Assembly (NCBI GenBank): GCA_016186955.1
Contig: JACPKP010000007.1
Coordinates: 1,962-65,961 of the forward strand
Length of the DNA: 64,000 nucleotides
Direction: 5' to 3'
DNA from: Candidatus Daviesbacteria bacterium
GTDB taxonomy: Bacteria; Patescibacteriota; Microgenomatia; Daviesbacterales; UBA10151
Numbering within the stretch: position 1 is the stretch's first letter; every line of letters starts with the position of its first letter. Under the pieces are notes generated by a model, which was not told where the DNA came from, did no database searches, and saw nothing but the letters and a program-made list of their open reading frames with translations. Below, one piece after another: positions 22,174 through 48,392 of the stretch. The translations under genes were made by a program, and so were the position numbers.

Positions 22174-22174
22174 T

Positions 22175-22366
22175 ATGAAAGAATTGACAAGAGATTTAAG
22201 CACGAGACAGGAAGCTATCAAAAACAATTTGAGTGATTTCAAATCTGATTATATGAATTTGCCTTTAAAGTGGAGAGTGGTGGGCACTGTTGCCTTTTTT
22301 GGATCAGCAATTGCAGCTGGAACTGGATTAGGGATTGCAGTAAGTATAGCCAAGTTATATTTTTAG
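22175..22366 (+). CDS. small hypothetical membrane protein (C-terminal TM)
   Basis: The ATG at 22175 immediately follows the rpsG stop. C-terminal VVGTVAFFGSAIAAGTGLGIAVSIA is hydrophobic. Confidence 0.3.
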   Translation: MKELTRDLSTRQEAIKNNLSDFKSDYMNLPLKWRVVGTVAFFGSAIAAGTGLGIAVSIAKLYF

Positions 22367-22376
22367 TTTTTTTTCA

Positions 22377-22401
22377 AATCCCGCCCCCGGGTAATCCTAG
22401 G
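22377..22401. repeat. X-repeat copy 0 (AATCCCGCCCCCGGGTAATCCTAGG)
   Basis: Related copies at 23724-23749 and 24431-24456. Confidence 0.5.
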
Positions 22402-22525
22402 CGCAACTTATGAAAGAACACCTACCAGACTTTAATCCTAAAACTGCTGTTTACATTGAAACAGGAGGCGATAGTGAAGTTTATCAAGTTGGGTTGGTGA
22501 TCTGATAATGTGATAAAATCTGGGT

Positions 22526-23383
22526 ATGGGTCCTGATGAAGAGACTGTGGAACCAGGGTTAGAAACAGAGGAATTGGCCCAAAAGATAAACCCCTTTTGG
22601 GAACAGCCCTATCAGTTGGCAAGAGCAGTTGCCAGAAGATGGAGAAAACCCGAGGCGAAAACAGAGATAGAACCTACTATTGCGTCTACTCACCAGGAAG
22701 ATATCCTTTCAACTAGAGATAAAAAAAACAAGCGGGAATTAGGAGCAGATAGCGCTAATGTTGTACTATTTGTTGAGCTTGAAGATGATGGCTCAGCAAT
22801 ATACAAACCCGTAAGTGGAGAGCAGCCTTACTTAAGACATGGTATTGAAGCAGGGACTTATTATCAAAGAGAACGGGCAGCATACCTAGTAGATAGGTTT
22901 TTAGGTCTCGGTTTAGTTCCACCAACCGTAATACGTGAATTAGATGGTGAGATTGGGAGTTTGCAGCAGTTTATTCCAGAAACAACGGGCAGTTGGGGTG
23001 TGGATCTTTCTCAACTACAAGAAGATTTATATCAACTTTGGGTTTTTGATTATATTATTTGGAATACAGATAGACATTCAGGTAATTTACTTTTTCAGGG
23101 TAATAAGCTTTTCGCAATCGATCATGGTCTGTCTTTTGGGAGTGAGTGTCGTATGTTCATGAGGCATTTTTATGACATTGCCGCTCCCAAACAACTGGTT
23201 GGTCTGCTGGAGCAATTTTTAAAAGATGACAAAAGCAAAAAAATTCTACAAGAACTACTTGAGGAGTTGCTCAGTGAAGATGAGGTAAAGGCTTGTGTGA
23301 GAAGGATTGAACATATCGGTTCTAAATTAATCAAAAATGGTATGATCAAACTTAATGAAGATAGCATTTTCAATCCTGAATAA
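22526..23383 (+). CDS. PI3K/PI4K-like atypical kinase-fold protein
   Basis: Catalytic-loop-like IWNTDRHSGNLLF (DRHxxN) and IDHGLSFG (DFG-equivalent). Upstream AIYKP beta-strand lysine and a conserved Glu in QRERAAYLVDRF. Confidence 0.45.
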   Translation: MGPDEETVEPGLETEELAQKINPFWEQPYQLARAVARRWRKPEAKTEIEPTIASTHQEDILSTRDKKNKRELGADSANVVLFVELEDDGSAIYKPVSGEQPYLRHGIEAGTYYQRERAAYLVDRFLGLGLVPPTVIRELDGEIGSLQQFIPETTGSWGVDLSQLQEDLYQLWVFDYIIWNTDRHSGNLLFQGNKLFAIDHGLSFGSECRMFMRHFYDIAAPKQLVGLLEQFLKDDKSKKILQELLEELLSEDEVKACVRRIEHIGSKLIKNGMIKLNEDSIFNPE

Positions 23384-23388
23384 CACAA

Positions 23389-23643
23389 ATGGCTTATGTA
23401 GAGATCTATAAATTAAATAATGATGGTTCGCAAAAGATTTTGGCTGTTTGCAGGCAGCTTGGGGAAGAGGTGGTTTGTGAAGGAGAGGAAAAGTTCATTG
23501 AATATTTAAATAAAGAGGGGATTAATGATTACAATTCCCCATCCCCGAAAAAATTATTCCCAAAAGACGGTAGGTTGTTTCTTGAACAATTAAAGTACAA
23601 TTTCAAATCAGGATACCTAAATGCCACTGATTTAAAAGAATGA
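23389..23643 (+). CDS. hypothetical protein
   Basis: ORF only; 84 aa; no recognisable motif. Confidence 0.3.
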   Translation: MAYVEIYKLNNDGSQKILAVCRQLGEEVVCEGEEKFIEYLNKEGINDYNSPSPKKLFPKDGRLFLEQLKYNFKSGYLNATDLKE

Positions 23644-23652
23644 ACCGCGTTA

Positions 23653-23719
23653 GGCACAAAAGGCGTCCCCTTTTGAGGCTAAATTAATTTATACCCCCTT
23701 GTTTTAACTGTAACTATTT
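23653..23719. repeat. Y-repeat copy 1: 67-nt exact duplicate of the 3' end of the regulator gene (24481..25785)
   Basis: Identical to 24457-24523. Its reverse complement encodes EIVTVKTRGYKLI*. Confidence 0.7.
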
Positions 23720-23723
23720 TTAA

Positions 23724-23749
23724 AATCCCACCCCCTGGGTGGTCCTGAG
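23724..23749. repeat. X-repeat copy 1 (variant, CCCACC-CCCT-GGGTGG hairpin)
   Basis: AAAATCCCACCCCCTGGGTGGTCCTGAG. Confidence 0.5.
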
Positions 23750-24449
23750 TATAGGTTTCCTTTCATCGAAAAGTTGCGGGCACAACAATTATAAGATATC
23801 ATTCTTGTTTATGGAGAGAATCAGTGTGCAGGAAGCAGGGTTAGAAGGTTTACCCAGGATTAGGGGACATCATCTAAATAAACTGAAAGAGCTCTATGTT
23901 TTTATGAATACTAAAAGGGAATCTTTATCCGAATCAGGATATCAAGGTTCTTTGTCAGGAGAAATGGAAGCTTTAATCAAATTTTTTATTCAGGAACATA
24001 GCAGCGATTTGTTGACATTTGTAGATCCTGCAACCCGTACTTTTGGTTTATCTCAAGAGTGGATGATGAGTTATATAAACGATACAATTGGAGGTATTGA
24101 AGCCGAGAAAGTTAAAATATACAATCAAAAAACATATGAAGCGATTGTAAAATATATTTCATATCCGGCAAGCCAACAAGTTCTATTGACAGTTACCCCG
24201 GATTTTATTTGCAGATTATGTTTAGTGGGAACACATTGTTTAAAAAGCTCAAAATTGATGCCACTTGATTATAGAGAAATCAGAGAATTTTCAAAGTTCC
24301 AAATAAACAGGAGAAGGGATATGCAAATTTATACGGAGGAATTTAAATTTAGCGATCGCCTGAAGCCATTAATCACTAAAGTAGTGTTAACCACCTTTGG
24401 AGATATTAGGTTTTACTTATCTTTTGGTGGAATCCCACCCCCGGGTTAG
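23739..24449 (+). CDS. hypothetical protein on a repeat-flanked cassette
   Basis: ORF bracketed by X/Y repeats. The true start may be MERISVQ at 23811. No recognisable domain. Confidence 0.4.
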   Translation: MVLSIGFLSSKSCGHNNYKISFLFMERISVQEAGLEGLPRIRGHHLNKLKELYVFMNTKRESLSESGYQGSLSGEMEALIKFFIQEHSSDLLTFVDPATRTFGLSQEWMMSYINDTIGGIEAEKVKIYNQKTYEAIVKYISYPASQQVLLTVTPDFICRLCLVGTHCLKSSKLMPLDYREIREFSKFQINRRRDMQIYTEEFKFSDRLKPLITKVVLTTFGDIRFYLSFGGIPPPG

Positions 24450-24523
24450 TCCTAGGCACAAAAGGCGTCCCCTTTTGAGGCTAAATTAATTTATACCCCC
24501 TTGTTTTAACTGTAACTATTTCA
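24431..24523. repeat. X-repeat copy 2 plus Y-repeat copy 2 (native 3' end of the regulator gene)
   Basis: AATCCCACCCCCGGGTTAGTCCTAGG followed by the 67-nt Y sequence. Confidence 0.7.
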
Positions 24524-25785
24524 TAAGAGCTGTTTTGTTGCTTCAGCTTACTCCGGACTCTTGCTACCAGCCTGTCTATTGCCCAATCGGAGACTCCCAA
24601 TTCCTCTTCTTCAGGCCAGACTGCTTCAATTATGGCTTCCCGCTCACATATCTGGTTTAAGTTATTTTGTAGACAAGTAAACAACAGATGTTCTTTTTTA
24701 CTGAGTTCCAACGGTGGCATTTCCAGCGGTTTGGCCCCATTTGTCTGTCTTGATTTGATGAAATTTTCAAAGATCGGGCTAAAAATCCGGGTTTTACCTT
24801 TTTCAGTAGCAACCAGGCCGGTATCCCAAAGGTATTTACTTGAAAGTTGCCCATCTTTTGAAATTTTTTCTTTGGAGACAATCTGAATCAGTGTATCTTG
24901 CTCTGTTTCATTTAAACTGTCCCAGAGTTCTTCGGATTGTAAAGCTATCCTTTCATCCTCTATCAAGGCCGGAAAAAGTTCAAAATTTTTGTTTAAAATT
25001 TTGATTTTTTCTGAGAGAGTAATCAAGGCGAGCAGCAGGTATTGGATATATCCGCCGGAAAACGCAAATAACTCTTCCTTAAATTTTTTGGGAAGGTGCA
25101 AGTTATACTTTCTGGTGTTAACTTTATAGATAGTTTCCAGATCTTTGGGCTCTGCTGTTTTAACATACATCTGGTATACGATTAGGGCGGGAGAGGCTTG
25201 GCTGAATGCCTTGGGTGCAAGCTGGTCTAAACTCCTAAAACTTGTCAAAACATAAGTTAACTGGTGGTTGGTTGCATCATACAGGCTTTCAAGGTTGGCA
25301 AAAAGCTCAGGCGTGACAGCATCTTTAATACGGTCAAAATGGATTAAAAACATTGTCGGGATAAAGCCTGCCTGTGTGATTTTTATCAAGCTTAACCTGA
25401 CACAATCAAATAATAAAAACAGGTCTTTTGATTGAATTGAATCCAAAAAAAGGTTCTCGACATATTTTTTAATTTTAGGTTCCAAATTTAAGCGCTCGCA
25501 GTTATCAACAATCCTTTTTAAAGTTAACATCCAAAATGGGAAAACCTCCCTTTCTACCAAATCATTTAGATCCACATGGATAAATAAATGTTTTTTTCTA
25601 TTTGGAATGTGTTTGTCTATCACCTTTTTATGGCTTAAGAAAAACCTTAAGAAATTGCTGATGCCAACCCGGCGCATACCGATCATAATGATTGTCTGGC
25701 GGTTTTTGAGATAATATCCTAAATTTTGGGAGATCTCTTTCCTGAAGGTTTTTGGGTAATACGATTCCAGGACCGTGTTTACCAT
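24481..25785 (-). CDS. transcriptional regulator: degenerate AAA/STAND-like NTPase domain fused to C-terminal OmpR/PhoB-type winged helix
   Basis: N-terminal IIMIGMRRVGISNFL resembles a Walker A with Lys replaced by Ile. Walker B-like LFIHVDLND. The C-terminus EAVWPEEE...IDRLVARVRSKL...IVTVKTRGYKLI is trans_reg_C-like. Confidence 0.6.
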   Translation of the reverse strand: MVNTVLESYYPKTFRKEISQNLGYYLKNRQTIIMIGMRRVGISNFLRFFLSHKKVIDKHIPNRKKHLFIHVDLNDLVEREVFPFWMLTLKRIVDNCERLNLEPKIKKYVENLFLDSIQSKDLFLLFDCVRLSLIKITQAGFIPTMFLIHFDRIKDAVTPELFANLESLYDATNHQLTYVLTSFRSLDQLAPKAFSQASPALIVYQMYVKTAEPKDLETIYKVNTRKYNLHLPKKFKEELFAFSGGYIQYLLLALITLSEKIKILNKNFELFPALIEDERIALQSEELWDSLNETEQDTLIQIVSKEKISKDGQLSSKYLWDTGLVATEKGKTRIFSPIFENFIKSRQTNGAKPLEMPPLELSKKEHLLFTCLQNNLNQICEREAIIEAVWPEEEELGVSDWAIDRLVARVRSKLKQQNSSYEIVTVKTRGYKLI

Positions 25786-25805
25786 GCAGGTTAATTTTAG
25801 AAGGA

Positions 25806-25862
25806 TTTGGTCAAATTAGCAAATAAATCAGGATTTTGTCAGAATGTGGTCAAAATAGCGTC
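25806..25862. promoter_or_regulatory. direct repeats GGTCAAAWTAGC(N) in the regulator gene's upstream region (possible wHTH operator)
   Basis: GGTCAAATTAGC (25808) and GGTCAAAATAGCG (25848), with a TTGTCAGAATG between them. Confidence 0.25.
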
Positions 25863-25898
25863 AAGCATATATTTTATCCTTGGCAATAAAATATATCA

Positions 25899-26177
25899 GT
25901 GACAGAAAAAGAATGGACGGATTACGGTTATGGTATCTCTCCGCTTTATGCTGCAGAAAACCCGGTGACTTATTTGCCTATTGCCCAGTTTTCTGCTCCT
26001 CTTGAATGTCCGCAGGGAATAATTGTAAAAGAAGCCCAACCGGAACAAAAAATTCAACCCAGACAAATTATTGTCGCACAGCCAAAAGTAGAGTACAGCA
26101 GCTATAAACGGCTACCCTTTTGGCGCAATTTAATAATAATTCTGCAAAAATGGGCGCCCCGTATAGGTTCCATTTGA
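25899..26177 (+). CDS. hypothetical protein
   Basis: ORF only; Gln/Pro-rich. Confidence 0.25.
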   Translation: MTEKEWTDYGYGISPLYAAENPVTYLPIAQFSAPLECPQGIIVKEAQPEQKIQPRQIIVAQPKVEYSSYKRLPFWRNLIIILQKWAPRIGSI

Positions 26178-26237
26178 CTTTTAAGTTCCAAGAGGTTAAT
26201 ATGTTATTCTGTCAAACGAAAAACCACGGAAGTTAAT

Positions 26238-26368
26238 CGTGGATGAAGTTTGCTTCGCCGACAGGCGAATCTCGCCGAAGGCGAGCAGGAAGAGAAACTA
26301 CGGGCGAAGCGAAGCGGAGTCCGTAGAGGCTCATTCTAAAGCACCCCTCTTCAGGGGGCTATTTTTTG
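26238..26368 (+). ncRNA. structured leader/possible small RNA: nested GC stems ending in an intrinsic-terminator-like hairpin plus T6
   Basis: GCTTCGCC...GGCGAAGC long-range pairing, CTCGCC-GAA-GGCGAG and CTACGG...CCGTAG stems, then CCCCTCTTCAGGGGG followed by TTTTTT (26343-26368). Confidence 0.3.
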
Positions 26369-26379
26369 AAATCACACCT

Positions 26380-26628
26380 ATGGATCAGTTAAAAAAACAA
26401 AAGCTTGAAATGTGGCAAAAAAAACTTGAAGGGCTTCAAAAAGAGTTCAAGGAGATTATGGTGCGCAAAGGGGAAGCTGCAGCTGACGGTGACCTTTCAG
26501 AAAATGCAGCATACAAACAGGCTGTGGAGGAGGCTGATATTTGCCTGGTCAGGATCAGTGAAATTAAAAAAATTATAGCTAATTTGGAAGGACCCGCCTC
26601 CGCCAAGGCTCCGGCGGGCAAGGGATAA
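26380..26628 (+). CDS. stand-alone GreA/GreB N-terminal coiled-coil domain protein
   Basis: GDLSENAAYKQA signature of the Gre-factor N-terminal domain, with two Asp/Glu near the coiled-coil tip. No FKBP-like C-domain; 82 aa. Confidence 0.55.
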   Translation: MDQLKKQKLEMWQKKLEGLQKEFKEIMVRKGEAAADGDLSENAAYKQAVEEADICLVRISEIKKIIANLEGPASAKAPAGKG

Positions 26629-26632
26629 TAGA

Positions 26633-28801
26633 ATGGCTGTTACAAAGACTAAGAGAGATTACCCCCTTGATAGGATACGTAACATAGGCATCATTGCCCA
26701 TATTGATGCCGGGAAGACCACCACAACAGAGCGGATCTTATTTTATACCGGTAAAACTTATAAAATAGGTAATATTGATGAAGGCACTACCACAACTGAT
26801 TGGATGGAACAGGAAAAGGAACGTGGTATTACAATAGTTTCTGCTGCTATAACCGCTTCCTGGACTGCCAAGTCAGGACCTTTTCAAGACCAGGAGATGA
26901 GGATTAATTTAATTGATACCCCCGGGCATGTGGATTTTACAGTGGAGGTAGAGCGGTCCTTGCGGGTTTTGGACGGAGGGGTGATTGTTTTGGATGCAGC
27001 CTCTGGTGTGCAGTCCCAGACCGAGACTGTCTGGAGGCAGGCCAATAAATACCATGTTCCTCTGATTGCATTTGCCAACAAGATGGATGTGGTTGGGGCT
27101 GATTTTTTGGGCACAATCCAGTCAGCCAGAGATAGATTAGGGGCAAACGCTATCGCCTATAACCTGCCGATTGGTGCGGAAACCAGTTTTAAAGGGGTTG
27201 TGGATTTGTTGGGTAATGATGAGAAGGGTGCTTTCGCGATTGTTTGGGAGCAAAGTGGTTCTGATTTTGATCCCAGTGGTTCAAAATTTAACATAACAGA
27301 TATTCCAGAAGATATGAAAATTGCAGTTGAGGAGCACAGAAATAAATTGATTGAAGAGATTTGTGCTACGGATGAAGTTTTATTGGAACAGTTTCTTAAT
27401 GGTAAGAAGATTGCTGTTAATGATTTGAAGTTAGCTTTGAGAAAAGCAGTAATTGCTGAAAAAATTGTCCCGGTTATGGCAGGTTCTTCACTTCGCAATA
27501 AAGGGGTGCAACCAATGCTTGATAATGTGGTTAATTTTTTGCCTTCCCCCCAGGATTTGCCTGAGATTAAAGGGCTTGACCCTAAAACCCAAGAGGAAAA
27601 GATTTTTCAGAATGTAAAAGATGCCCCTTTGGGCGCTTTGGCTTTTAAAATCCAGGTTGACCCTCATGTTGGGAGGCTCACTTATGTTAGGGTTTATTCT
27701 GGGATTTTAAAATCAGGTTCATATCTTTACAACTCAACAAAAGATGTAAAAGAGCGGGTAGGGAGGGTGCTTTTAATGCACGCCAATGATAGGGAGGAGA
27801 TTGATGAAGCTTTTGCAGGGGAAATTATAGCAGTAGTGGGGTTGAAAGATACTGTGACTGGAGATACGCTTTGTGATGATTCAAACCCGATTGTTTTGGA
27901 ATCCATTACTTTTGCAGAACCTGTGATCTCTCTTGCTATTGAACCCAAAACTAAATCAGACCAGGAAAAACTGGCTTATTCTTTGCAAAGACTGGGGGAA
28001 GAAGACCCAACATTTCGGGTAAAATCTAACCCTGAGACAGGACAGACTATTATCTCCGGTATGGGAGAGCTCCATCTGGAGATTATTGTGGACAGGATGA
28101 AAAGGGAGTTTAAGGTGGAGGCGAATATTGGAGAGCCTCAGGTTGCATACCGGGAAACTATCCAAAAAGAAGCAAGGGGTGAGGGTAAGTACATCAGGCA
28201 GACTGGTGGCAGAGGCCAATACGGACATTGCTTGCTTAGGATTGAACCTCTTCCCAGGGGCCAGGGACGGGAATTTGTCTCAGAAGTTGTGGGTGGGGCA
28301 ATACCAAGGGAGTTTATTCCGGCTATCGAAAAAGGGGTTATTGAAAAAGAAGACACCGGAATGTTGGCCGGTTTTCCGGTAACGGATATCAAAGTTGCGG
28401 TTTATGACGGGTCATATCATGATGTTGATTCATCTGAGATTGCATTTAAAATTGCCGGATCCTTAGGGCTTTCCGAGGCTGCCAAAGAGGCGGATATGAT
28501 ACTTTTGGAGCCTATTATGAAGGTGGAAGTGACAACGCCTGAGGAATTTATGGGAGATCTGATTGGGGATTTATCTTCAAAACGGGCACAGATCCTGGGT
28601 ACTGAGAAAAGGCATAATTCAAGCGTGATTAATGCTTTGGTGCCTCTTGCAGAACTTGGAGGTTATATAACTGCCATAAGGTCAATGTCACAAGGTCGTG
28701 CTTCAGCCTACATTGAGCCCTCCCATTATGAGAGTGTGCCAAGTAACATTACCCAAAAAATTGTTGCATCTTCAGGGTTCACTGGCAGAGTTGAGCATTA
28801 A
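26633..28801 (+). CDS. fusA: elongation factor G
   Basis: AHIDAGKTTTTERIL, DTPGHVDF, NKMD; full length. Confidence 0.95.
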   Translation: MAVTKTKRDYPLDRIRNIGIIAHIDAGKTTTTERILFYTGKTYKIGNIDEGTTTTDWMEQEKERGITIVSAAITASWTAKSGPFQDQEMRINLIDTPGHVDFTVEVERSLRVLDGGVIVLDAASGVQSQTETVWRQANKYHVPLIAFANKMDVVGADFLGTIQSARDRLGANAIAYNLPIGAETSFKGVVDLLGNDEKGAFAIVWEQSGSDFDPSGSKFNITDIPEDMKIAVEEHRNKLIEEICATDEVLLEQFLNGKKIAVNDLKLALRKAVIAEKIVPVMAGSSLRNKGVQPMLDNVVNFLPSPQDLPEIKGLDPKTQEEKIFQNVKDAPLGALAFKIQVDPHVGRLTYVRVYSGILKSGSYLYNSTKDVKERVGRVLLMHANDREEIDEAFAGEIIAVVGLKDTVTGDTLCDDSNPIVLESITFAEPVISLAIEPKTKSDQEKLAYSLQRLGEEDPTFRVKSNPETGQTIISGMGELHLEIIVDRMKREFKVEANIGEPQVAYRETIQKEARGEGKYIRQTGGRGQYGHCLLRIEPLPRGQGREFVSEVVGGAIPREFIPAIEKGVIEKEDTGMLAGFPVTDIKVAVYDGSYHDVDSSEIAFKIAGSLGLSEAAKEADMILLEPIMKVEVTTPEEFMGDLIGDLSSKRAQILGTEKRHNSSVINALVPLAELGGYITAIRSMSQGRASAYIEPSHYESVPSNITQKIVASSGFTGRVEH

Positions 28802-28900
28802 ATTTGCATTTTTTTGTAAGTTGTATTAGTATATATATACTTAAATCTCCCGCAAGGACCAAAAGTCATTTGCGGGATTTTTTGTGCTATACTCATTTGC

Positions 28901-29455
28901 ATGAAACAAGCCCGCTGCGTGATTATTATTGATGGGAGTAACTTCTACTTCAAGTTAAAAGATTTGGATTTACATTATGAACTGCAATTTGATTTCTCTG
29001 GTTTTGCTAAATTGCTGGCTGGTAAGAATAAAATTGCGAGGTGTGTGTACTATGTGGGTGCGGTAAGAACAGATGGTACAAAACATACCCAAAAGTTGTT
29101 TAATAAGCAGCAGAAACTTTTTGCAAATCTCAAGAAACATAATTTTCAATATTCGCTTGGATATTTGTTGAAATCTGGCGGAAAAATGCATGAAAAAGGA
29201 GTAGATGTTAATATGGCTGTTGATATAGTTAAAGGTGCGCTAAAAGATGAGTTTGAACATTTTATTATAGTCAGCTCGGACACGGATTTGTTACCAGCTA
29301 TATTAGTAGTCAAAGAAGCGGGCAAAACTATTGAATATATAGGATTTTCTCATCAAGCAAGTTTGGCGATGGTAGCTAATTGTTCCGAATCCAGGTTATT
29401 GAAAAAAGAGGATTTACTACCTTTTGTAAGTCGCAAAATATCACCCAAAAAATAG
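28901..29455 (+). CDS. NYN-domain (LabA/PIN-like) nuclease-fold protein
   Basis: IIIDGSNF and FIIVSSDTDL motifs typical of the NYN/DUF88 PIN-like fold. Confidence 0.65.
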   Translation: MKQARCVIIIDGSNFYFKLKDLDLHYELQFDFSGFAKLLAGKNKIARCVYYVGAVRTDGTKHTQKLFNKQQKLFANLKKHNFQYSLGYLLKSGGKMHEKGVDVNMAVDIVKGALKDEFEHFIIVSSDTDLLPAILVVKEAGKTIEYIGFSHQASLAMVANCSESRLLKKEDLLPFVSRKISPKK

Positions 29456-29494
29456 TGGCATCCTCCGGGTTTACAGGCAGAGTAGAGCATTAAT
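29444..29494 (+). repeat. 51-nt synonymous-codon duplicate of the fusA 3' terminus (encodes TQKIVASSGFTGRVEH*)
   Basis: 9 of 51 nt differ from 28751-28801, all at synonymous third positions; out of frame with the NYN gene. Confidence 0.8.
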
Positions 29495-29877
29495 TATTTG
29501 AAATATTGCCTTTTACGATAAATTGCCCAGAACCAGAGTGTGCTTACGATGATAAGACTTAACCAAGCAGGTATATAAGAATAGGGCCAATATGCACCTG
29601 AAGAATTTTTGAAAAAAATAACCAAATAATCAAGAAATGATATTATCCAGCTAATTATTGATAAATAAATCCCCCACTTTTGAAATTTCCAAAGTCCGTA
29701 TATTAAGACAATTGCCACTAAGTTTACTAAGATCCTGTAGGGAAAATACCAAATAGGGTTGAAATTTTCAAGGTTTATTTGGTTAAATTTGAAGAAAATT
29801 AAGTAAAGGGAATATAAAACGGATAAAGAAAAAATAAATAGAACAATTGTTAAAAATTTGCCTCGCTCTTTTTTCAT
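29494..29877 (-). CDS. integral membrane protein (4 predicted TM helices)
   Basis: Highly hydrophobic and Trp/Tyr-rich, with TM segments throughout. Confidence 0.5.
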   Translation of the reverse strand: MKKERGKFLTIVLFIFSLSVLYSLYLIFFKFNQINLENFNPIWYFPYRILVNLVAIVLIYGLWKFQKWGIYLSIISWIISFLDYLVIFFKNSSGAYWPYSYIPAWLSLIIVSTLWFWAIYRKRQYFK

Positions 29878-29978
29878 ATAAACTAATTATAATATTAAAT
29901 TACACTTTTTACAAAGATTGTTTAAGAAAACGTTTTTCTTAAACATTACCCCTCTGATGTGGCAGGACAATTTTAATA

Positions 29979-30038
29979 TCACACCTCCGAGGTGTGATAA
30001 AAATAGCTGTTGACAAATTGGATACAAGCTCATAGAAT
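29979..30038 (+). promoter_or_regulatory. 19-bp palindrome TCACACCTCCGAGGTGTGA followed by sigma70 promoter TTGACA-17-TAGAAT
   Basis: Second copy of the palindrome. The -10 lies only ~8 nt before the ATG at 30046, suggesting a near-leaderless transcript. Confidence 0.45.
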
Positions 30039-30045
30039 CACTGGC

Positions 30046-30780
30046 ATGGAGAGCCAAGGTGCAGTGAAGAAAATTTCAAGAGTTAGAAAAACCATCATTG
30101 ATACCAAACCAGAACCTGTATCACAAATAGACTCCATACCCACTATTCAACTTCACTCAAAAAAAGATATTTTCAATAACCTCAATGAAGAAATAAAAAA
30201 ATTAAAAGATCAATTTGATATTTTGGAAAAAGAAATTACTGAAACAAGACAAGAGTGGGTTAAGGAACAAAGAGTTCATCAACAGGAGATGGAGGAAAGA
30301 GAACGTCAAGAGAATCTTGGAAGAAAACATGAGCAAGAGCTGTACCAGTATGAAACAAATTTGAATCATAAAAAAGCGGAAGATGAATTTAGTGACAAAA
30401 AAACTAAGTGGGAAAAGGAGCTTTTAGAGCGTAAAGATGAGCTTGCAAAAGATAAACAGGAATTAGCGGAATTAAGAAGCAAGGTAGCAGGTTTTGAACA
30501 ACAGCTTGTCAAAGCAGCAGATGGGGCATCTGAAGCGGCTAAAAAAGAGCTGGAATCTAGGTTTGAGAATGAAAAAAGATTATATGAGCAGCAAGTCAAG
30601 GCGGAAAAAGATGTACTCAATTTAAGGCTCAGCAATTTGACTGCTGATAATAGTAGGCAAGCTCATGAGATAGAAACTCTCAAAAAAGCTTTGGATGAAG
30701 CTACAAGACAGGTGAAGGAGATAGCGGTAAAAGTGATTGAATCAAACAGCGGTGTAATTAAAACCTCCTCTGCAGAATAG
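30046..30780 (+). CDS. coiled-coil protein (Glu/Lys-rich)
   Basis: Heptad-like EELKKL periodicity throughout. The ORF-track start at 30010 lies inside the promoter; the ATG at 30046 is preferred. Confidence 0.45.
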   Translation: MESQGAVKKISRVRKTIIDTKPEPVSQIDSIPTIQLHSKKDIFNNLNEEIKKLKDQFDILEKEITETRQEWVKEQRVHQQEMEERERQENLGRKHEQELYQYETNLNHKKAEDEFSDKKTKWEKELLERKDELAKDKQELAELRSKVAGFEQQLVKAADGASEAAKKELESRFENEKRLYEQQVKAEKDVLNLRLSNLTADNSRQAHEIETLKKALDEATRQVKEIAVKVIESNSGVIKTSSAE

Positions 30781-30834
30781 TTACTTTTAATGTGATCGTT
30801 TAAATATCCGTAGTATGGTAAAATAAATTTACGT

Positions 30835-31191
30835 ATGAATGAACAAGAGGTTAGTTTAGACCAACTAAAACAGATAATACGGGAAAAAGGCATAAATCCC
30901 GCCCCTGGCGCTAAACCCGGCAGTTTTACAGCATATGGAATCGTTTTAGGAAACCATGGATTAGCAGCTACGGAAGTTTTTTATGAAATTTATAAAAGAC
31001 TTAAACCTATCTTTGGAGAAGCGCTGCTGGATGGTTTTTCAACTTCTGCCGCGCATGCGGAACTGGGGAGATTTGAGCCTAAATTAGCGCCTTACTCCGA
31101 TGGAGAAACAGCCTGGCTTGAGGCTCAGAAATCAGAGCTGACTGTTTATTTAAAAAGCACACTGAAGCGGAGGAAACAGGTAGGATTGTAA
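30835..31191 (+). CDS. hypothetical protein
   Basis: ORF only; 118 aa. Confidence 0.35.
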   Translation: MNEQEVSLDQLKQIIREKGINPAPGAKPGSFTAYGIVLGNHGLAATEVFYEIYKRLKPIFGEALLDGFSTSAAHAELGRFEPKLAPYSDGETAWLEAQKSELTVYLKSTLKRRKQVGL

Positions 31192-31205
31192 GTGGCCGAG
31201 CCAAT

Positions 31206-32291
31206 ATGGTTGAGAATAAACCCCAAAAATTATGGTTGTACGATCAAACTATTGCAGGTGAAGGTTTGAGCCAAATTGTCCAAGATCTTCTGAAAGATGT
31301 CCCAAGTATCGGGCAGCCAAATATCTTTCCATTGGAGTGGCATGGTGATGCCCATGGAAAATTAGCAAAGCTTTATGAAACAGCAAAAGAACGTGCTTGG
31401 AATCCGGCTCAGGCGATTGATTGGAAAAAGTTGGATCCCAAAGACTTTACAAGAGAACAACGGTTGGGGGTAATGTATTGGTATTCAGTTTTGGCGAATT
31501 TCGACGGTTCGGGGCCTCCGGTTTTTGCTAAAGCAATGATAAAATCTTATGAAACACATGAACCTAATGAGCTTAGAAATGCATTTTTTTCAATAGCCCG
31601 GGATGAAGTAAACCATGAAGAGGTTTGTTACCGGACAGTTTCCAGGCTTTGGTCTCAAACCCCGACAGAATGGGACCCTCAAAATGACCTAGAAGCTTTA
31701 GCCTTGAGAAACATCCGTTGGCTTTATTATAACGGCGGTAGATATTGGAAAGGTTATTCCAAGGCTTTGGAAGAAAAATATCCGATGAGCGTACTTTTTT
31801 CTTCATTTATGATGGGAGAGGTTGCGGCCACAACCCTTTTTCACAACATGAGTAAGGCAGCCAAACATCCTGTTTTTGCCCAGGGGCTTAAAAAAGTTGG
31901 GCAGGATGAAGCTAGGCATATGGCAATTTGCCTGGCTGCGTTGGAGCATGAATATATGAAACTGACAGAAGAAGATAAACAGATGATTACTAAGCAGCTT
32001 CGGGCCGGGTTTGTATTTCTTTCCATGATTTTGTATGAACCGCCTGATGAATTTTGGAAGCTGCCCCCGGAATTTTTGGAGGTTCATAGAAAATTAGAAC
32101 AGTTAGCAAGGGAAGCAGGTTTGGGAGTGGCAACCTTAAGCGAAAAGAAACAAGTTTGGCAGGAGGCAATGCTTAAAGTAAAAACAGTAGTAAACTCCTA
32201 TGGAGTGGAATTTCCAGCCATGCCTGAAGTAGGTATCACCGGAAAGGAGGTTGTAAATATCAGCATGGAAGATATAATTCCTGTATTCTAA
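31206..32291 (+). CDS. ferritin-like diiron-carboxylate oxygenase superfamily protein
   Basis: Two E...ExxH pairs (E-THE...DEVNH and GEVAA...DEARH) spaced as in diiron enzymes of the R2/AurF/desaturase type. Confidence 0.5.
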   Translation: MVENKPQKLWLYDQTIAGEGLSQIVQDLLKDVPSIGQPNIFPLEWHGDAHGKLAKLYETAKERAWNPAQAIDWKKLDPKDFTREQRLGVMYWYSVLANFDGSGPPVFAKAMIKSYETHEPNELRNAFFSIARDEVNHEEVCYRTVSRLWSQTPTEWDPQNDLEALALRNIRWLYYNGGRYWKGYSKALEEKYPMSVLFSSFMMGEVAATTLFHNMSKAAKHPVFAQGLKKVGQDEARHMAICLAALEHEYMKLTEEDKQMITKQLRAGFVFLSMILYEPPDEFWKLPPEFLEVHRKLEQLAREAGLGVATLSEKKQVWQEAMLKVKTVVNSYGVEFPAMPEVGITGKEVVNISMEDIIPVF

Positions 32292-32292
32292 T

Positions 32293-32778
32293 ATGGAAAG
32301 AATGGTTGGAAAAGCAGTCAGAACCTTAGATGACAAAACAACTGTTTTGAACTTTGACAGTATAAAGAGAGGCGACAGGTTTGTGATGGAGCAGGAAGTT
32401 ACAAGGGAAAAGGTGATGCTTTTTGCACAGGCTTCCGGTGATTTCAGTCTTTTACACTCTGATCCTCAATATGCATTAAATACCCGTTTTGGCAAGGTTA
32501 TTGCCCATGGAATGCTGACAGGGGGTTTTATTTCTGCAGCGCTTGCGGGTTTAGGTAAAGACGCAATGACTGCAGTCTATCTGGAGCAGTTTTTAAAATT
32601 CCACAGGCCGGTTGTAGAAGGGGATATTTTAAGGGTTTATTTAAAAATCACTTGTAAAAATAACACAGACAAAAGCCTTTGTTTGACGACAGATTGTTAC
32701 AACAGAAGAGATCGATTGGTAGTCAGCGGTAGGGCAAAAATCCGTTTGGATCCATACCCATATCCTCAAGCTGCCTGA
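32293..32778 (+). CDS. MaoC-like (R)-specific enoyl-CoA hydratase/dehydratase (hotdog fold)
   Basis: ASGDFSLLHSDPQYA...GKVIAHGML motif. Its start overlaps the stop of the diiron gene. Confidence 0.7.
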   Translation: MERMVGKAVRTLDDKTTVLNFDSIKRGDRFVMEQEVTREKVMLFAQASGDFSLLHSDPQYALNTRFGKVIAHGMLTGGFISAALAGLGKDAMTAVYLEQFLKFHRPVVEGDILRVYLKITCKNNTDKSLCLTTDCYNRRDRLVVSGRAKIRLDPYPYPQAA

Positions 32779-32821
32779 AAATTCAGGATGATCGGGATCA
32801 CGCAAAATTTCAAACTAACTA

Positions 32822-32850
32822 TTGCATTTTGCGCTAGATTATTATATTAT
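32822..32850 (+). promoter_or_regulatory. candidate tuf promoter TTGCAT-17-TATTAT with long leader
   Basis: Good hexamers, followed by a CCAGCTT-TGGA-AGCTGG hairpin and a ~140-nt leader ending in an AAGGA SD. Confidence 0.4.
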
Positions 32851-32991
32851 TTGGTATAAGCCCAGCTTTGGAAGCTGGATTTTAATGGGTTGGTACCCAT
32901 GTCATTTCGATACGCAAGTGAGAAATCTTATATAGAAATTAGATTGCCACGTCGCTCGTAAACTCACTCCTCGCAATGACAAAGGAAACAT

Positions 32992-36324: not shown

Positions 36325-37180
36325 GTCAAAAGTCAAAAGCCCGTCTGCCGGACGGGCAGGTCAAAAGTCAAAAGTATCAAGAAAAGATTCTGTCGCCCCG
36401 AGTAACTCGGGGATCCAGAATGACAAAAAACCAAAAAAGACTAAAAAAGTTGCAGGAGTAAATAAGATTGCCACGTCCTCCGAAAAGGTTAAAAAACCTA
36501 TAGTTAAAACTAAGACAACATCAAATTTGTCAATTCCTGTTTATTCTCTGGCAGGCAGCAAGACCGCAGCAAGTTTGGCATTGCCTAAAGAAATTTTTGG
36601 CGCCAAAGTAAACAAAGCCTTGCTTGCCCAGGCGATGAGGGTTTACCTTAATAATCAGAAAAGCCATTGGTCAAATACCAAAACCCGTGGTGAAGTAAAA
36701 GGGTCAACCAGGAAAATTTTTAAACAAAAAGGCACCGGCAGGGCAAGACATGGGGCAATCAGGGCCCCAATTTTTGTGGGCGGGGGGATTGCTTTGGGGC
36801 CAAAAAACCGGAAGGTAGTTTTGGATCTGCCCGCAAAAATGAAAAATGCGGCGCTGGTTTCAGCCTTAGCACAAAAAGCAGATGAGAAGCAGGTTTTAGG
36901 GATCAGCGGCTTGGATAAAGCAAGCGGAAAAACCAAAGAGATGATAGGCTTAGTCACAAGAGTCCAGAGTCAAGAGTCCAGTAAAAAAAGTATTTTGATT
37001 GTGGTGGGGGAGAAGATAGAAAATGCTGCTAGGGCTGTGAGAAATATTACAGGGGTAGATTTACTGCAATTTGACCAGATTAATGCTTATGAAGTAATTA
37101 AACACCAAAGCCTGGTTTTAACAAAGGAAGCTGTTGAAAAATTGCAGGGAAGACTATTGGGTAAAAAGGAGGCTAAATAA
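36311..37180 (+). CDS. rplD: 50S ribosomal protein L4 with ~80-aa Lys-rich N-terminal extension
   Basis: L4 core from about IPVYSLAG. The N-terminal extension contains the palindromic element (36324-36374) in-frame. Confidence 0.9.
   Translation: MAVIKSKVKSPSAGRAGQKSKVSRKDSVAPSNSGIQNDKKPKKTKKVAGVNKIATSSEKVKKPIVKTKTTSNLSIPVYSLAGSKTAASLALPKEIFGAKVNKALLAQAMRVYLNNQKSHWSNTKTRGEVKGSTRKIFKQKGTGRARHGAIRAPIFVGGGIALGPKNRKVVLDLPAKMKNAALVSALAQKADEKQVLGISGLDKASGKTKEMIGLVTRVQSQESSKKSILIVVGEKIENAARAVRNITGVDLLQFDQINAYEVIKHQSLVLTKEAVEKLQGRLLGKKEAK
36324..36374. repeat. GTCAAAA(x2)-GCCCGTCTGCCGGACGGGCAGG-GTCAAAA(x2) palindromic element, in-frame in rplD
   Basis: Encodes KSKVKSPSAGRAGQKSKV; family members at 37599, 38199, 47643, 44466 and 49419. 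Confidence 0.75.
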
Positions 37181-37182
37181 AA

Positions 37183-37692
37183 ATGACAGCTGTTATATTA
37201 AAACCGTTGGTTACGGAAAAATCAATGTCGCTTGTCAAATCAGGAATGTTTACATTCCTGGTGGATAAAAACGCCACCAAAAGTCAGATTGGGAAAGCTG
37301 TTTCCGGGAGATTTGCAGTGGATGTTTTAAGTGTCAGTACAGTGAATATGAAGGGTAAAACCAAACTGCAAAAGAGCAGAAAAGGGTATTTTCAGAAACC
37401 ATCGTTTAAAAAAGCAATAGTCCAGCTTAAAAAAGGGCAAAAAATTGCTTTGTTTGAATCAGCAGAGAAAGAAGAAGTAGAAGTGAGGACAGCAGAAGGT
37501 GAAGTAGTTGGCAAAACCACAGAAAAAAAGAGTTTATTGGGGAGGACAAAGATAAAGATCAGCAAGCTGTCTCCTGTGGAGATTGAACAAAATACAGCAG
37601 TCAAAAGCCCGCCTGCCGGACGGGCAGGTCAAAAGGCAAAAGTTAAAAGTACAAGTAAAAAATTAAAAGTAAACAAGAAAGGAGCTAAGTAA
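37183..37692 (+). CDS. rplW: 50S ribosomal protein L23 with C-terminal extension
   Basis: L23 core; the C-terminal 70 aa are Lys-rich and contain the palindromic element. Confidence 0.85.
   Translation: MTAVILKPLVTEKSMSLVKSGMFTFLVDKNATKSQIGKAVSGRFAVDVLSVSTVNMKGKTKLQKSRKGYFQKPSFKKAIVQLKKGQKIALFESAEKEEVEVRTAEGEVVGKTTEKKSLLGRTKIKISKLSPVEIEQNTAVKSPPAGRAGQKAKVKSTSKKLKVNKKGAK
37599..37645. repeat. palindromic element copy in the rplW 3' extension (GCCCGCCTGCCGGACGGGCAGG flanked by GTCAAAAG)
   Basis: Encodes VKSPPAGRAGQKAKVKS. Confidence 0.7.
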
Positions 37693-37695
37693 AAA

Positions 37696-38556: not shown

Positions 38557-38650
38557 AGTCTAGTCGCAAGAGTCCAGAGTCAAGTGAACGTCATTGCGAG
38601 GACTCCGATGGACATCGGAGGACGAAGCAATCTAATAAAAATTAAAAATT
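38556..38650. repeat. rplB-rpsS spacer element: GTCAAGA 7-mers, TCCGATG-GA-CATCGGA palindrome, AAAATTAAAAATT before the rpsS ATG
   Basis: A 94-nt spacer where these genes are normally adjacent. Confidence 0.5.
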
Positions 38651-38935
38651 ATGTCAAGATCATCATATAAAGGTCCGTATGTGGACGTCAAATTGTTAAA
38701 AAAAGTTAATGCACAAAAGGCTGATGGTGCAAAAACTCCGATTAAAACCTGGGCCAGAAGGTCACAGATTCCGCCTGAATTCGTGGGCCATACATTTTTG
38801 GTGCATCAAGGTAAGAATTTTGTGTCTGTTTATATTTCTGAATCCATGGTGGGGCACAAACTTGGGGAATTTGCGCCAACCAGAATTTTTAGGTCACATG
38901 GAAAGATGACTGAGAAAAGCGTAGCAAAAACATAA
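38651..38935 (+). CDS. rpsS: 30S ribosomal protein S19
   Basis: S19 signature [33 protein letters not shown]. Confidence 0.9.
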
Positions 38936-38941
38936 AACATA

Positions 38942-39418: not shown

Positions 39419-39451
39419 CAAAGTAAGTTTAAAAATTGTACTTACTTTGTC
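39417..39451. repeat. perfect 12-bp inverted repeat hairpin GACAAAGTAAGT-N11-ACTTACTTTGTC between rplV and rpsC
   Basis: Overlaps the rplV stop; followed by an A-rich tract and then the rpsC ATG. Confidence 0.5.
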
Positions 39452-39462
39452 AAATAAAAACT

Positions 39463-40517: not shown

Positions 40518-40523
40518 TATTTT

Positions 40524-41173: not shown

Positions 41174-41255
41174 TCCGCTTGTCAAAAATGCTGCGCATTT
41201 TTGCAAGCGATCTCAAAAACTATAATTGTTTGTAGTTTAGAGGAAGTTTTTTCCG

Positions 41256-42034: not shown

Positions 42035-42040
42035 TGATTT

Positions 42041-42870: not shown

Positions 42871-42886
42871 ATAGAAAGGAAAAAAG

Positions 42887-44037: not shown

Positions 44038-44038
44038 T

Positions 44039-44374: not shown

Positions 44375-44380
44375 GGAACT

Positions 44381-48091: not shown

Positions 48092-48139
48092 CTATGGGTT
48101 GTTTTTTGAATTTAAAACTGCTACAATTGTAAGGTTAAT

Positions 48140-48391: not shown

Positions 48392-48392
48392 T

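Follow-up and report, generated by a model that had tools for sequence, protein, structure and literature searches.

The fusA 3' end of Candidatus Daviesbacteria as a recurrent site of small cassettes between duplicated gene termini

The genomes of Patescibacteria are tiny and contain few mobile elements that can be recognised, and the ways in which these bacteria exchange genes are poorly understood. In a stretch of 64,000 nucleotides from a Candidatus Daviesbacteria genome (hereafter the window), the gene for elongation factor G (fusA) runs to its normal end, a small gene for a NYN-domain nuclease follows, and the terminal codons of fusA then appear a second time, spelled differently. How does a cassette come to lie between two ends of one essential gene that encode the same peptide with different codons? 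A first-pass annotation proposed that the nuclease gene belongs to an element that integrates into the 3' end of fusA and brings its own replacement terminus. The anatomy of the locus, its counterparts in related genomes and the divergence of the two gene ends are considered here in turn, followed by the mechanisms that could have produced them.

The duplicated fusA terminus and its cassette

The features to which the text refers are as follows.

26633..28801, + strand: fusA (EF-G, 722 aa), intact; an ORF whose homologues, 100-77% identical, are named elongation factor G of Candidatus Daviesbacteria
28745..28801, + strand: repeat copy 1, the functional fusA end (last 18 codons plus TAA), by sequence comparison
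28802..29436, + strand: whole inserted cassette, 635 nt, between the repeat copies; its limits agree with the limits of homology in the cassette family
28803..28832, + strand: promoter-like boxes TTTGCA and TAGTAT with an 18-nt spacer, at the left end of the cassette, read from the sequence
28839..28884, + strand: conserved unit of ~45 nt, comprising a ACTTAAATCTCC tail, a hairpin (28849-28876) and a T-run (28878-28883)
28901..29455, + strand: NYN-domain nuclease gene, 184 aa (PF01936, E = 2e-17; HEC-09, E = 1e-15)
29437..29493, + strand: repeat copy 2, a stranded fusA terminus with no ORF of its own, out of frame with the NYN gene
23651..24521, strand not assigned: second gene-end duplicate, a perfect 69-nt repeat at 23651-23719 and 24453-24521

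The two copies of the fusA end are offset by 692 nt and agree at 48 of 57 nucleotides, with a longest identical run of 11 nt, and either one encodes the peptide NITQKIVASSGFTGRVEH followed by a stop. All nine differences are synonymous third-position changes, an outcome with a probability of ~5e-5 if they were placed randomly. The repeat had initially been described as a 51-nt pair (28751-28801 and 29444-29494) with nine substitutions, all synonymous and in third positions. The repeat itself and the character of its differences stand, but the second coordinate is corrected to 29443-29493, the match extends 6 nt further 5', and the count is seven in 51 nt and nine in 57. Copy 2 possibly starts one codon earlier still, at 29434, where CAA encodes the Q that is common at that position of fusA. 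The two cassette flanks align locally with a score of 69, whereas the 99th percentile is 29 in a null made by pairing upstream and downstream flanks across unrelated loci, and the repeat is one of just 18 repeat families of at least 28 nt in the whole window. On flank score, codon-position probability and rarity, a chance origin of the repeat is excluded.

EF-G remains intact because the fusA side holds a full copy of the terminal codons. The NYN frame closes at a TAG that lies within copy 2 in a different frame, and copy 2 is therefore not read as EF-G, in agreement with the first-pass annotation, which had placed it out of the NYN frame. The conserved part of the NYN protein stops at ...LLPFV, and copy 2 supplies the final six codons and the TAG. 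Fusion of NYN to the EF-G tail through a programmed -1 frameshift on CCCAAAAAATAG was considered and dropped because the frame of the cargo relative to the downstream copy differs from locus to locus.

The cassette sits inside the last 19-20 codons of fusA and is a discrete and, judging from its sequence, autonomous unit that combines promoter-like boxes, a hairpin RNA or terminator and a predicted NYN RNase gene. The putative promoter boxes begin 2 nt past the fusA stop, and most cassette family members carry a TTGACA-N17/18-TAGTAT layout at the equivalent position. The hairpin has a fold z of -4.3, and in an alignment of 26 family members 99.6% of the cells are paired, with compensatory changes in 7 of 10 pairs. 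About 70 of 81 NYN genes adjoin this 45-nt unit, which lies either upstream on the same strand or downstream and convergent. It is a putative small RNA, an intrinsic terminator or both, and may also end fusA transcription. Neither the hairpin RNA nor the AATCCCRCCCCC motif matched any entry in Rfam, and a conserved site at which the RNA tail could pair in antisense with the NYN mRNA was sought and not found. The AATCCC... motifs were considered as remnants of tRNA 3' ends and rejected, as ARAGORN and Rfam show no tRNA there. The sole tRNA of the window is a tRNA for Pro, which has no match to the AATCCC... motifs.

The NYN protein scores 64.5 bits against the PF01936 profile (curated cut-off 24.2). 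PF01936 was the only family found for it, and it belongs to none of the known DNA homing endonuclease families. Residues D11, E98, D102, D108 and D129 are invariant in an alignment of 22 sequences, and D127 is conserved in at least 90% of them. The top PDB matches of its AF2 model (pLDDT 82.7) are VPA0982 (2QIP) and the NYN domain of MARF1, with the T5 5'-exonuclease among the weaker fold matches. The protein is thus modelled as a standard NYN/LabA-type PIN-like fold and is a predicted RNase, as characterised relatives such as MARF1 are RNases. It also matches the HEC-09 model of PADLOC, and no NYN relatives were found on viral contigs. The NYN protein and its RNA partner are most likely a putative toxin-antitoxin-like or defence module. 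The order of promoter, small RNA, terminator and endoribonuclease gene (here predicted) is that of type III toxin-antitoxin systems (ToxIN), but the RNA is a single hairpin rather than a tandem repeat array, and ToxN-type toxins differ from NYN in fold.

A dispersed cassette family and a recurrent docking site

The cassette belongs to a family with more than 2,100 homologues in Microgenomates, whose context differs almost species by species. More than 60 different sites are occupied, and 129 of the ~150 ORFs flanking NYN cassettes are singletons. Between unrelated contexts, the homology is delimited by the -35 box on one side and the ORF end on the other, which bears out the earlier proposal that the NYN gene lies within a small, discrete mobile unit. 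For instance, the cassettes of L014 and L036 share 91.7% identity between -87 and a point 31 nt before the stop, and homology spans -133 to +9 between L072 and L084 and -134 to -1 between L061 and L082.

Duplicated flanks are not confined to fusA. At 23 of 71 NYN loci (about one-third), flank repeats exceed the 99th percentile of the cross-locus null; what is duplicated is either the 3' end of the gene upstream (fusA) or the 5' end of the gene downstream (gatC, dnaE, hisS and others). The downstream copy begins a few nucleotides from the NYN stop. Differences pooled over 22 duplicates fall 19, 7 and 120 times on codon positions 1, 2 and 3 (146 in total; binomial p = 7e-34), and 9, 5 and 55 times in the subset not ascertained on peptide. 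With 120 of 146 differences at position 3, both copies carry the signature of evolution as real fusA ends, and the suggestion that selection had shaped the stranded copy as a genuine fusA terminus is upheld. A further case in the window is a one-ORF cassette (23720-24452) flanked by the perfect 69-nt direct repeat, which contains the last 13 codons, the stop and the terminator hairpin of a minus-strand gene (24481-25785).

In Daviesbacteria the fusA 3' end acts as a hotspot, a reusable docking site for varied cargo. Spacers in 35 related fusA-tuf intervals range from 307 to 4194 nt, and most hold a single fusA end; in 11 of the 35, a second or third fusA end lies behind other cargo. The cargo comprises DUF433 with DUF5615/PIN, Phd with ParE, NYN and a 735-aa helicase-like ORF. 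Eleven of 69 metagenome loci with a fusA end hold two exact pattern matches, and more hold relaxed copies; cassettes stand in series at L089, L140 and L145, and at least three NYN lineages have colonised the site. Duplicates of the tuf 5' end were also sought, and none was convincing (at most one, against the 11 intervals with duplicated fusA ends). The comparison of this interval among relatives, which the first-pass annotation had proposed, thus reveals polymorphism, and the arrangement is therefore not an old tandem duplication fixed in all of them.

No empty site was found in close relatives, whose EF-Gs reach at most 86% identity, and within the same population every contig holds the cassette. 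The shortest gaps with a single fusA end measure 307 and 468 nt, in genomes none of which exceeds 86% EF-G identity and whose downstream DNA is not alignable. When the NYN protein and the downstream membrane protein were looked up by exact protein match, every contig recovered carried the cassette, and an exact look-up of the 434-aa neighbour gave no match.

The 32 ORFs of the window contain no Pfam match to an integrase, transposase or recombinase, and no integrase or transposase was found inside the cassettes examined. No inverted-repeat, palindromic, attC-like or dif-like architecture is visible at the junctions. The fusA end was inspected by eye as an integron core site or dif and rejected, the likeness being inconsistent between copies. 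The analogy with integrase-driven tRNA-targeting islands, drawn in the first-pass annotation, is not supported, given the lack of a recombinase in the cassette and among the window ORFs, the more than 60 sites and the lack of a fixed core. Since no recombinase is present and unrelated cargo gives the same fusA-end anatomy, NYN is not needed for insertion: it is cargo and not the integrating enzyme.

Possible routes to two diverged gene ends

The best reading, held with moderate confidence, is homology-guided recombination after horizontal transfer. The cassette would have arrived from another Daviesbacteria-like lineage and become established through recombination for which the conserved fusA sequence itself was the guide, with one exchange in or beside fusA and a second inside the short stretch of fusA-end homology or at its edge. 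With exchange points so placed, one copy would descend from the functional fusA end of the donor and the other from that of the recipient. The two copies would have been 'born diverged', which would account for their differing only at synonymous sites. Each insertion would regenerate a fusA end, so that more cassettes could stack. The likely route would be uptake of DNA and then recombination of a homologous or homology-facilitated kind; natural competence and recombination genes have both been reported for Patescibacteria (PMC10633639, PMC12455944).

The divergence of the copies speaks for this reading. Long copies resemble each other no more than they resemble the functional fusA ends of other lineages; in the window, copy 2 matches the fusA end of another lineage at 51 of 57 positions (median 43), more than the 48 it shares with copy 1. 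Because the long copies are about as different as the ends of separate lineages, one of the two would have come from another lineage, as the first-pass annotation had supposed. Against the fusA ends of the nearest relatives, the scores of the window copies are tied. The ParE cassettes of L108 and L114 have 22 nt of the downstream copy in common, beyond which they differ, and in its distal part the L108 downstream copy matches L108's own fusA end, a pattern that fits exchange inside the fusA-end homology. It is also a weak hint that in L108 the upstream copy is the native one and that the downstream copy is foreign in the part nearest the cassette. The route of transfer, the type of recombination and the identity of the native copy are what we infer beyond these comparisons.

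Other observations sit less easily with homology-guided recombination. The homology arms measure 27-63 nt at ~80-85% identity, and arms of this kind are poor RecA-type substrates, which counts against it, as do cassette ends that are tighter than expected from random break points. Simple homologous recombination does not predict the asymmetry between fusA and tuf or the clustering of edges, which hint at site preference or strong selection. No signal of a mosaic fusA was found at the protein level. NYN proteins at fusA in different hosts are 66-70% identical, compared with 77-78% for the EF-Gs; being more diverged than the host EF-Gs, they give no direct sign of recent transfer.

Site-specific integration, the kind of model put forward in the first-pass annotation, would start from a circular cassette carrying an attP-like fusA end. 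A tyrosine, serine or Xer-type recombinase encoded elsewhere in the genome would exchange this end with the chromosomal one, as in tRNA-targeting islands, ICEs in the 3' ends of protein genes, integron cassettes or pdif modules. We consider this possible but rather unlikely. It would account for cassettes in series that are each followed by a fusA end, for a duplicated fusA end without a duplicated tuf start, and for the precise cassette limits. The left edges of downstream copies span -8 to -20 codons and gather around -20 and -9/-10, and one cassette type has the same junctions in unrelated hosts, both as such a system might produce. An element-borne end under selection at the protein level only would explain the synonymous drift. 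Yet neither any cassette nor the window encodes a recombinase, and one NYN family occupies more than 60 sites with different duplicated sequences. Even when cassette type and site are the same, the left edge shifts by many codons, the two copies have no identical stretch above 11 nt in common, and attC/dif-like or inverted-repeat architecture is not visible.

An origin in place is less probable again. Insertion would have created an identical long target duplication that then diverged within the lineage, the downstream copy being either selected (e.g. as a working end again after excision) or repeatedly overwritten. The perfect 69-nt duplication around the other cassette of the window shows such a starting state, and short fusA-end copies of 27-30 nt are nearly identical to their own fusA end. 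Within a genome both copies usually encode the same peptide, though the peptide varies between genomes, and codons -9 to -14 agree fully in 7 of 9 independent long pairs, compared with ~12% of random pairs. However, ~60% of changes in a neutral pseudo-copy are expected at codon positions 1 and 2, whereas none of the nine in the window and 26 of the pooled 146 are found there. The failure of long copies to resemble each other more than the ends of other lineages speaks against this origin as well, and the stranded copy has no apparent function, with no ORF and a frame that varies relative to the cargo.

Homing by the NYN protein, which would cut an uninterrupted fusA end and leave repair to copy in the cassette together with a recoded, cleavage-resistant end, is improbable to a still greater degree. 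The nuclease gene does have a recoded functional end directly on one side and a displaced end on the other, and FEN-type DNA nucleases are relatives of the PIN/NYN fold. Fungal mitochondria offer a precedent in the C-terminal duplications of atp6 and cob, where a homing nuclease ORF follows an essential gene, with the working end before it and a displaced partial copy behind (PMC6279837). Those ORFs encode LAGLIDADG or GIY-YIG DNA endonucleases, whereas the protein here is predicted to be of the NYN RNase type, and its characterised relatives are RNases. Allomyces atp6, reportedly described by Paquin et al. in 1994, is said to be an example of a free-standing homing gene with a C-terminal duplication. 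In contrast to such genes, non-nuclease cargo behaves alike here: Phd/ParE and DUF433/DUF5615 give the same anatomy at the same site without a DNA endonuclease. NYN cassettes are not faithful to one site either, as their 129 singleton neighbours and the three or more NYN lineages at fusA attest, and no paper linking NYN to homing was found. Finally, an assembly chimera in which the fusA ends of two strain variants were joined, conceivable in a metagenome-assembled genome, has a negligible probability, since the identical repeat and cassette sequence occurs on independent assemblies of four sequencing runs and is therefore no assembly accident, and the same anatomy recurs in dozens of unrelated assemblies from different projects.

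Related systems and gene flow in Patescibacteria

Under homology-guided recombination, the fusA cassette is best read as a variant of 'insertion with long target duplication', known from restriction-modification (RM) gene units (Nobusato et al., 2000; Furuta, Abe and Kobayashi, 2010, PMC2853133). Measured by what Furuta et al. (2010) used to recognise such units, the insert is 635 nt (limit 20 kb), carries no mobility gene and is flanked by a direct repeat of 57 nt (threshold 30 bp). They also looked for a related genome with a single repeat copy and no insert, for which the candidates here are the single-ended fusA-tuf intervals of relatives no closer than 86% in EF-G. The RM units are likewise small selfish units without a mobility gene, bounded by target-derived direct repeats of variable length (30-420 bp) that at times overlap a gene 3' end, and they occur mostly in naturally competent bacteria (PMC2853133). 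Their repeats are near-identical, their cargo is RM genes and their hosts are Proteobacteria and similar groups. In the CPR bacteria studied here, by contrast, the cargo is NYN plus RNA or toxin-antitoxin genes, long repeats have diverged at synonymous sites, and one gene end is a recurrent hotspot with cassettes in series.

Integrase-driven elements also insert in the 3' ends of protein genes, as ICESt1 does in fda and SXT in prfC. In integrase islands and ICEs, as here, sequence brought by the element restores the gene end, and the end that it displaces becomes the far-side direct repeat; however, they bring their own integrase, have a fixed crossover core and extend over kilobases, whereas the fusA cassettes lack both, have variable edges and measure 0.6 kb. 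Integron cassette arrays and the pdif modules of Acinetobacter resemble them in another respect, being small trimmed cassettes, often toxin-antitoxin genes, that have no recombinase of their own and are stacked at one place between copies of a short site. Unlike in those systems, no intI/attC or XerC/D-dif architecture was seen at the junctions or in the window, and the separating 'site' is essential-gene coding sequence that differs by locus. The minimal mobile elements of Neisseria, reportedly described by Saunders and Snyder in 2002, are alternative cassettes between conserved genes that are exchanged by transformation and homologous recombination, but they leave no duplicated gene end.

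A wider reading, which we offer tentatively and with less confidence than homology-guided recombination, is that CPR bacteria possess a cassette system without a cassette-borne recombinase, in which the coding termini of conserved essential genes serve either as homology arms or as portable sites of attachment. At fusA, the final 9-20 codons may do what attC does in integrons. Small toxin-antitoxin or defence cassettes would dock at such termini, stack in arrays and pass between lineages, and each event would swap in a synonymous foreign end and leave the old one behind. The promoter, 45-nt hairpin RNA and NYN gene would then constitute a new and very widespread addiction or defence module of two parts, RNA and nuclease, carried by this system.

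The fusA locus offers a concrete and repeated footprint of gene flow in Patescibacteria. Conserved genes receive small, recombinase-free cassettes at their very ends or starts and stay intact, and the terminus that was displaced persists as a scar that can be dated. The locus also brings to light a conserved pair of RNA and NYN gene, with more than 2,000 members and without an assigned function. If a trans-acting recombinase is responsible, the cassettes would represent an integron-like system with protein-coding attachment sites. If insertion is homology-guided, it would explain hypervariable 'islands' inside the otherwise rigid cluster of ribosomal protein, EF-G and EF-Tu genes, and the terminal codons of a marker gene such as fusA could be foreign, which is relevant to phylogeny.

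The fusA end as an insertion site

In the window, which comes from a Candidatus Daviesbacteria, the NYN gene lies between two copies of the 3′ end of fusA, together with a promoter-like region and a small hairpin unit:

fusA, 26633-28801, 722 aa, C-terminus ...NITQKIVASSGFTGRVEH followed by the stop
Promoter-like boxes of the TTGACA-N17/18-TAGTAT type, 28803-28832
Unit of ~45 nt, 28839-28884, with a CTAAAATCTCC tail, a covarying hairpin, a T-run and its own promoter-like boxes
NYN ORF, 28901-29455, 184 aa (PF01936, E = 2e-17), between both repeat copies

The final 57 nt of fusA (28745-28801; copy 1) are found again at 29437-29493 (copy 2), offset 692 nt downstream. The copies agree at 48/57 bases; the other nine sit at third codon positions of the fusA frame and are all synonymous. 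The flank-to-flank alignment score at this locus is 69, against a 99th percentile of 29 for a null in which upstream and downstream flanks were paired across unrelated loci, and the arrangement also occurs on independent assemblies from four sequencing runs. These results confirm the duplicate reported in the first-pass annotation, with corrections: the repeat reaches two codons further 5′ than the 51 nt then described, its second copy had been placed one base too high, and the differences, rightly described as synonymous only, number seven in those 51 nt and nine across the full 57 nt. The final six codons and the TAG of the NYN gene fall inside copy 2 in a different frame, so that no EF-G sequence is translated from this copy, in agreement with the first-pass annotation.

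Scanning metagenome contigs for sequences able to encode GFTGRVEH-stop yielded 69 loci, essentially Daviesbacteria-type fusA ends; 11 carry two same-strand exact matches, and relaxed searches added more. The fusA-tuf spacer spans 307-4194 nt in metagenome and genome loci. Where a contig covers both the fusA end and the tuf start (35 intervals), the spacer contains an additional fusA end in 11 cases and, at most once and marginally, a copy of the tuf start. The cargo between fusA-end copies includes DUF433 with a DUF5615/PIN-like protein, Phd/YefM with ParE, NYN, and a 735-aa helicase-like ORF, among others, and three of the loci fetched for comparison (L089, L140, L145) hold two or more cassettes in series, with a fusA end after each. 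Downstream copies end at the stop codon and start 8 to 20 codons before it, their left edges clustering around -9/-10 and -18/-20. Relative to the resident fusA end, short copies (27-30 nt) carry 1-4 base differences, and long ones (39-63 nt) show 74-87% identity. The fusA end is thus a hotspot at which NYN is dispensable for the anatomy.

At L109 (1004-1651) the fusA site is occupied by a distant NYN gene of 200 aa that is in frame with the stranded fusA end, so that its protein terminates in ...SSGFTGRVEH, the EF-G tail. At L134 (~3915-3978) the stranded end behind a DUF433 cassette, among the few copies showing decay, has lost 1 nt and carries an in-frame stop (CAA to TAA).

NYN cassettes and the hairpin unit

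The NYN protein of the window is full length, the family carrying a conserved ...LLPF(V/I) motif just before its C-terminal end. It has more than 2,187 homologues, nearly all in Microgenomates/Patescibacteria, with identities of 63-80% and lengths of 170-207 aa (mostly 177-185). Its structure model (pLDDT 82.7) matches VPA0982 (2QIP) and the NYN domain of MARF1, an RNase family, and the protein also matches the PADLOC candidate HEC-09. A search for relatives on viral contigs gave none, and a literature search found no NYN genes tied to mobility or homing in Patescibacteria.

At 80 NYN loci sampled from species-representative genomes, neighbours are nearly all different (129 of ~150 flanking ORFs are singletons), and NYN lies behind fusA at only three loci besides the window. 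Repeats between the upstream and downstream flanks exceed the null 99th percentile at 23 of the 71 loci with enough flank. Three kinds of sequence are duplicated: coding sequence from the 3′ end of the gene upstream, namely fusA in the window, L005, L007 and L034; coding sequence from the 5′ end of the gene downstream (L032, L025, L035, L008, L056, L077 and L030); or intergenic DNA. The downstream copy begins no more than a few nt from the NYN stop. Judging by eye from the peptides, we take the downstream genes to be gatC-like in L032, L025 and L035, dnaE-like in L008 and hisS-like in L056; those of L077 and L030 are unnamed. In 22 coding duplicates, differences at codon positions 1, 2 and 3 number 19, 7 and 120 (binomial p = 7e-34), with 111 synonymous and 19 non-synonymous codons; duplicates not ascertained on peptide give 9, 5 and 55. 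Because neutral in-place decay would put most changes at positions 1 and 2, this pattern indicates that both copies evolved as working gene ends during nearly all their divergence. In L005 (4534-4625) NYN is followed by a complete stranded fusA end, interrupted by a palindromic insertion of 45 nt (TCATCGACTCTGAGG...CTCAGACTCGAAGA; hairpin predicted at -13.5 kcal/mol) that looks like a miniature inserted element.

Upstream of nearly all NYN members, TTGACA-N17/18-TAGTAT boxes are followed by ~45 nt and a second -10-like box directly before the ATG, the ~45-nt unit consisting of ACTAAAATCTCC, a hairpin whose loop is of the GNRA type, and a T-run. Across 26 hairpin sequences, paired cells amount to 99.6%, with compensatory changes at 7 of 10 pairs; the window hairpin folds with z = -4.3, and the unit has no Rfam match. 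About 70 of 81 NYN genes are adjoined by this unit, upstream on the same strand or downstream and convergent, and it is rare elsewhere; an NYN subfamily at 45% identity is accompanied by a divergent version. Since nine loci have the unit 3′ of NYN on the opposite strand, it appears to be a partner gene rather than a mere leader. No antisense site for the RNA unit is conserved in the NYN mRNA. The hairpin RNA may be an antitoxin or substrate partner of the nuclease, and, judging by gene order, the pair would most likely be a TA-like or defence module. The association is not strict, since L005 holds a second promoter and hairpin-RNA unit (5059-5470) where the gene that follows is not NYN but DUF5674 (E = 1e-30).

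Cassettes in unrelated contexts share DNA homology from the -35 box to the stop codon or a few codons short of it: the L014/L036 pair shows 91.7% identity between -87 and a point 31 nt short of the stop, and homology spans -133 to +9 in L072/L084 and -134 to -1 in L061/L082. The cassette therefore has defined ends, its stop codon coming from the right-hand sequence as in the window, and the gene indeed belongs to a small discrete unit, as first suggested.

Other insertions and repeats in the window

The rpsL-rpsG-fusA-tuf cluster, normally compact, is split by ~4.4 kb and ~4.2 kb of unrelated genes (22174-26632 and 29494-32991). Besides the kinase listed here, they include genes for AAA-plus-winged-helix regulator, GreA-N-like, small membrane, coiled-coil, AurF-like and MaoC-like proteins.

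HipA/PI3K-like kinase, 22526-23383
Perfect 69-nt direct repeat, 23651-23719 and 24453-24521: last 13 codons, stop and terminator hairpin of the gene at 24481-25785
Single ORF between the 69-nt repeats, 23739-24449, with no Pfam match
AAA plus Trans_reg_C gene, 24481-25785, minus strand

The 69-nt repeat locus has the same gene-end-duplication anatomy as fusA, yet its copies are identical, so that this duplication is presumably recent. The motif AATCCCRCCCCC(N)GGGT occurs three times (22377-22393, 23724-23740 and 24431-24447; 0.05 expected by chance), two copies marking both ends of the 23720-24452 cassette; in one frame the copies encode C-terminal ...(I/N)P(P/A)PG-stop peptides. By ARAGORN and Rfam they are no remnants of tRNAs, and the motif is absent from all 156 fetched loci. 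Intergenic repeat families, including five copies of the hairpin unit AGTCAAAAGCCCGTCTGCCGGACGGGCAGGTCAAAAG, lie among the ribosomal protein genes at 36331-49454; AT-rich repeats of 57-84 nt are found at 42589, 42889, 44382 and 49334, and another repeat, of 57 nt, occurs at 41670 and 43414.

Origin of the copies and route of insertion

The EF-G C-terminal peptide is variable among Daviesbacteria. Among long repeats, the downstream copy resembles the fusA end of its own genome no more closely than it resembles those of other lineages, so that the two copies appear to have been 'born diverged', one of them deriving from a different lineage. In the window, copies 1 and 2 agree at 48/57 positions, while the functional fusA end of another lineage agrees with copy 2 at 51/57 (median 43), and the central proposal of the first-pass annotation, that one copy came from another lineage, holds. 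The nearest EF-G is 86% identical, both window copies give tied scores against the fusA ends of the nearest relatives, a protein-level mosaic test of the window fusA gave no signal, and contigs of the window's population include no empty site. Elsewhere, the cassette/copy junction is common to different hosts for DUF433 (TTTTA followed by CCACAAAAT in L085/L152, L145 and L134) and ParE (22 identical nt in L108 and L114). Beyond the shared junction the copies differ in a codon-structured manner, and in L108 the distal part matches the fusA end of the same genome. Such mosaic copies suggest exchange inside fusA-end homology, in which the cassette-proximal part would move with the cassette and the distal part would be the recipient's former end.

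Horizontal transfer followed by recombination guided by conserved gene sequence is the favoured and moderately probable route, in which the short stranded gene end would act as second homology arm or joint. Patescibacteria are reportedly naturally competent and retain genes for recombination (PMC10633639, PMC12455944). A purely homologous process fits poorly with arms this short and diverged, with the contrast between fusA and tuf, and with edges that cluster, which keeps a trans-acting site-specific recombinase in play as a serious, if rather improbable, rival; no recombinase, such as the one envisaged earlier as recognising the fusA site, is found inside any cassette or among 32 window ORFs. 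In-place duplication followed by divergence is doubtful: it would account for the repeats that are short and identical and for the perfect 69-nt one, but is at odds with the synonymous-only pattern of the long repeats. Unrelated cargo yields identical anatomy at the fusA site, so NYN is cargo and not the insertion agent; that it is a homing endonuclease is unlikely. The nearest anatomical parallel is the atp6 or cob C-terminal duplications around free-standing homing endonuclease genes of fungal mitochondria (PMC6279837). An assembly artefact, for an arrangement recovered from separate runs, can practically be dismissed.

Integrase-driven islands that restore the targeted gene end have a similar outcome, and integron or pdif-module arrays a similar stacking, yet tests at the fusA locus did not find the defining features of either. 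The nearest bacterial precedent is the 'insertion with long target duplication' of restriction-modification units, which are small, selfish and without mobility genes, and whose target repeats of 30-420 bp sometimes overlap gene 3′ ends; such insertions occur mostly in competent species by an unknown mechanism (PMC2853133). The fusA cassette is best filed with this known, mechanistically unsolved kind of insertion. The phenomenon is real and wider than the window alone made visible. What is new is the cargo, an RNA and NYN pair with thousands of members, and its host group, the CPR; synonymous-only divergence as a mark of inter-lineage origin; and the fact that many types of cassette have repeatedly used a single essential-gene terminus.
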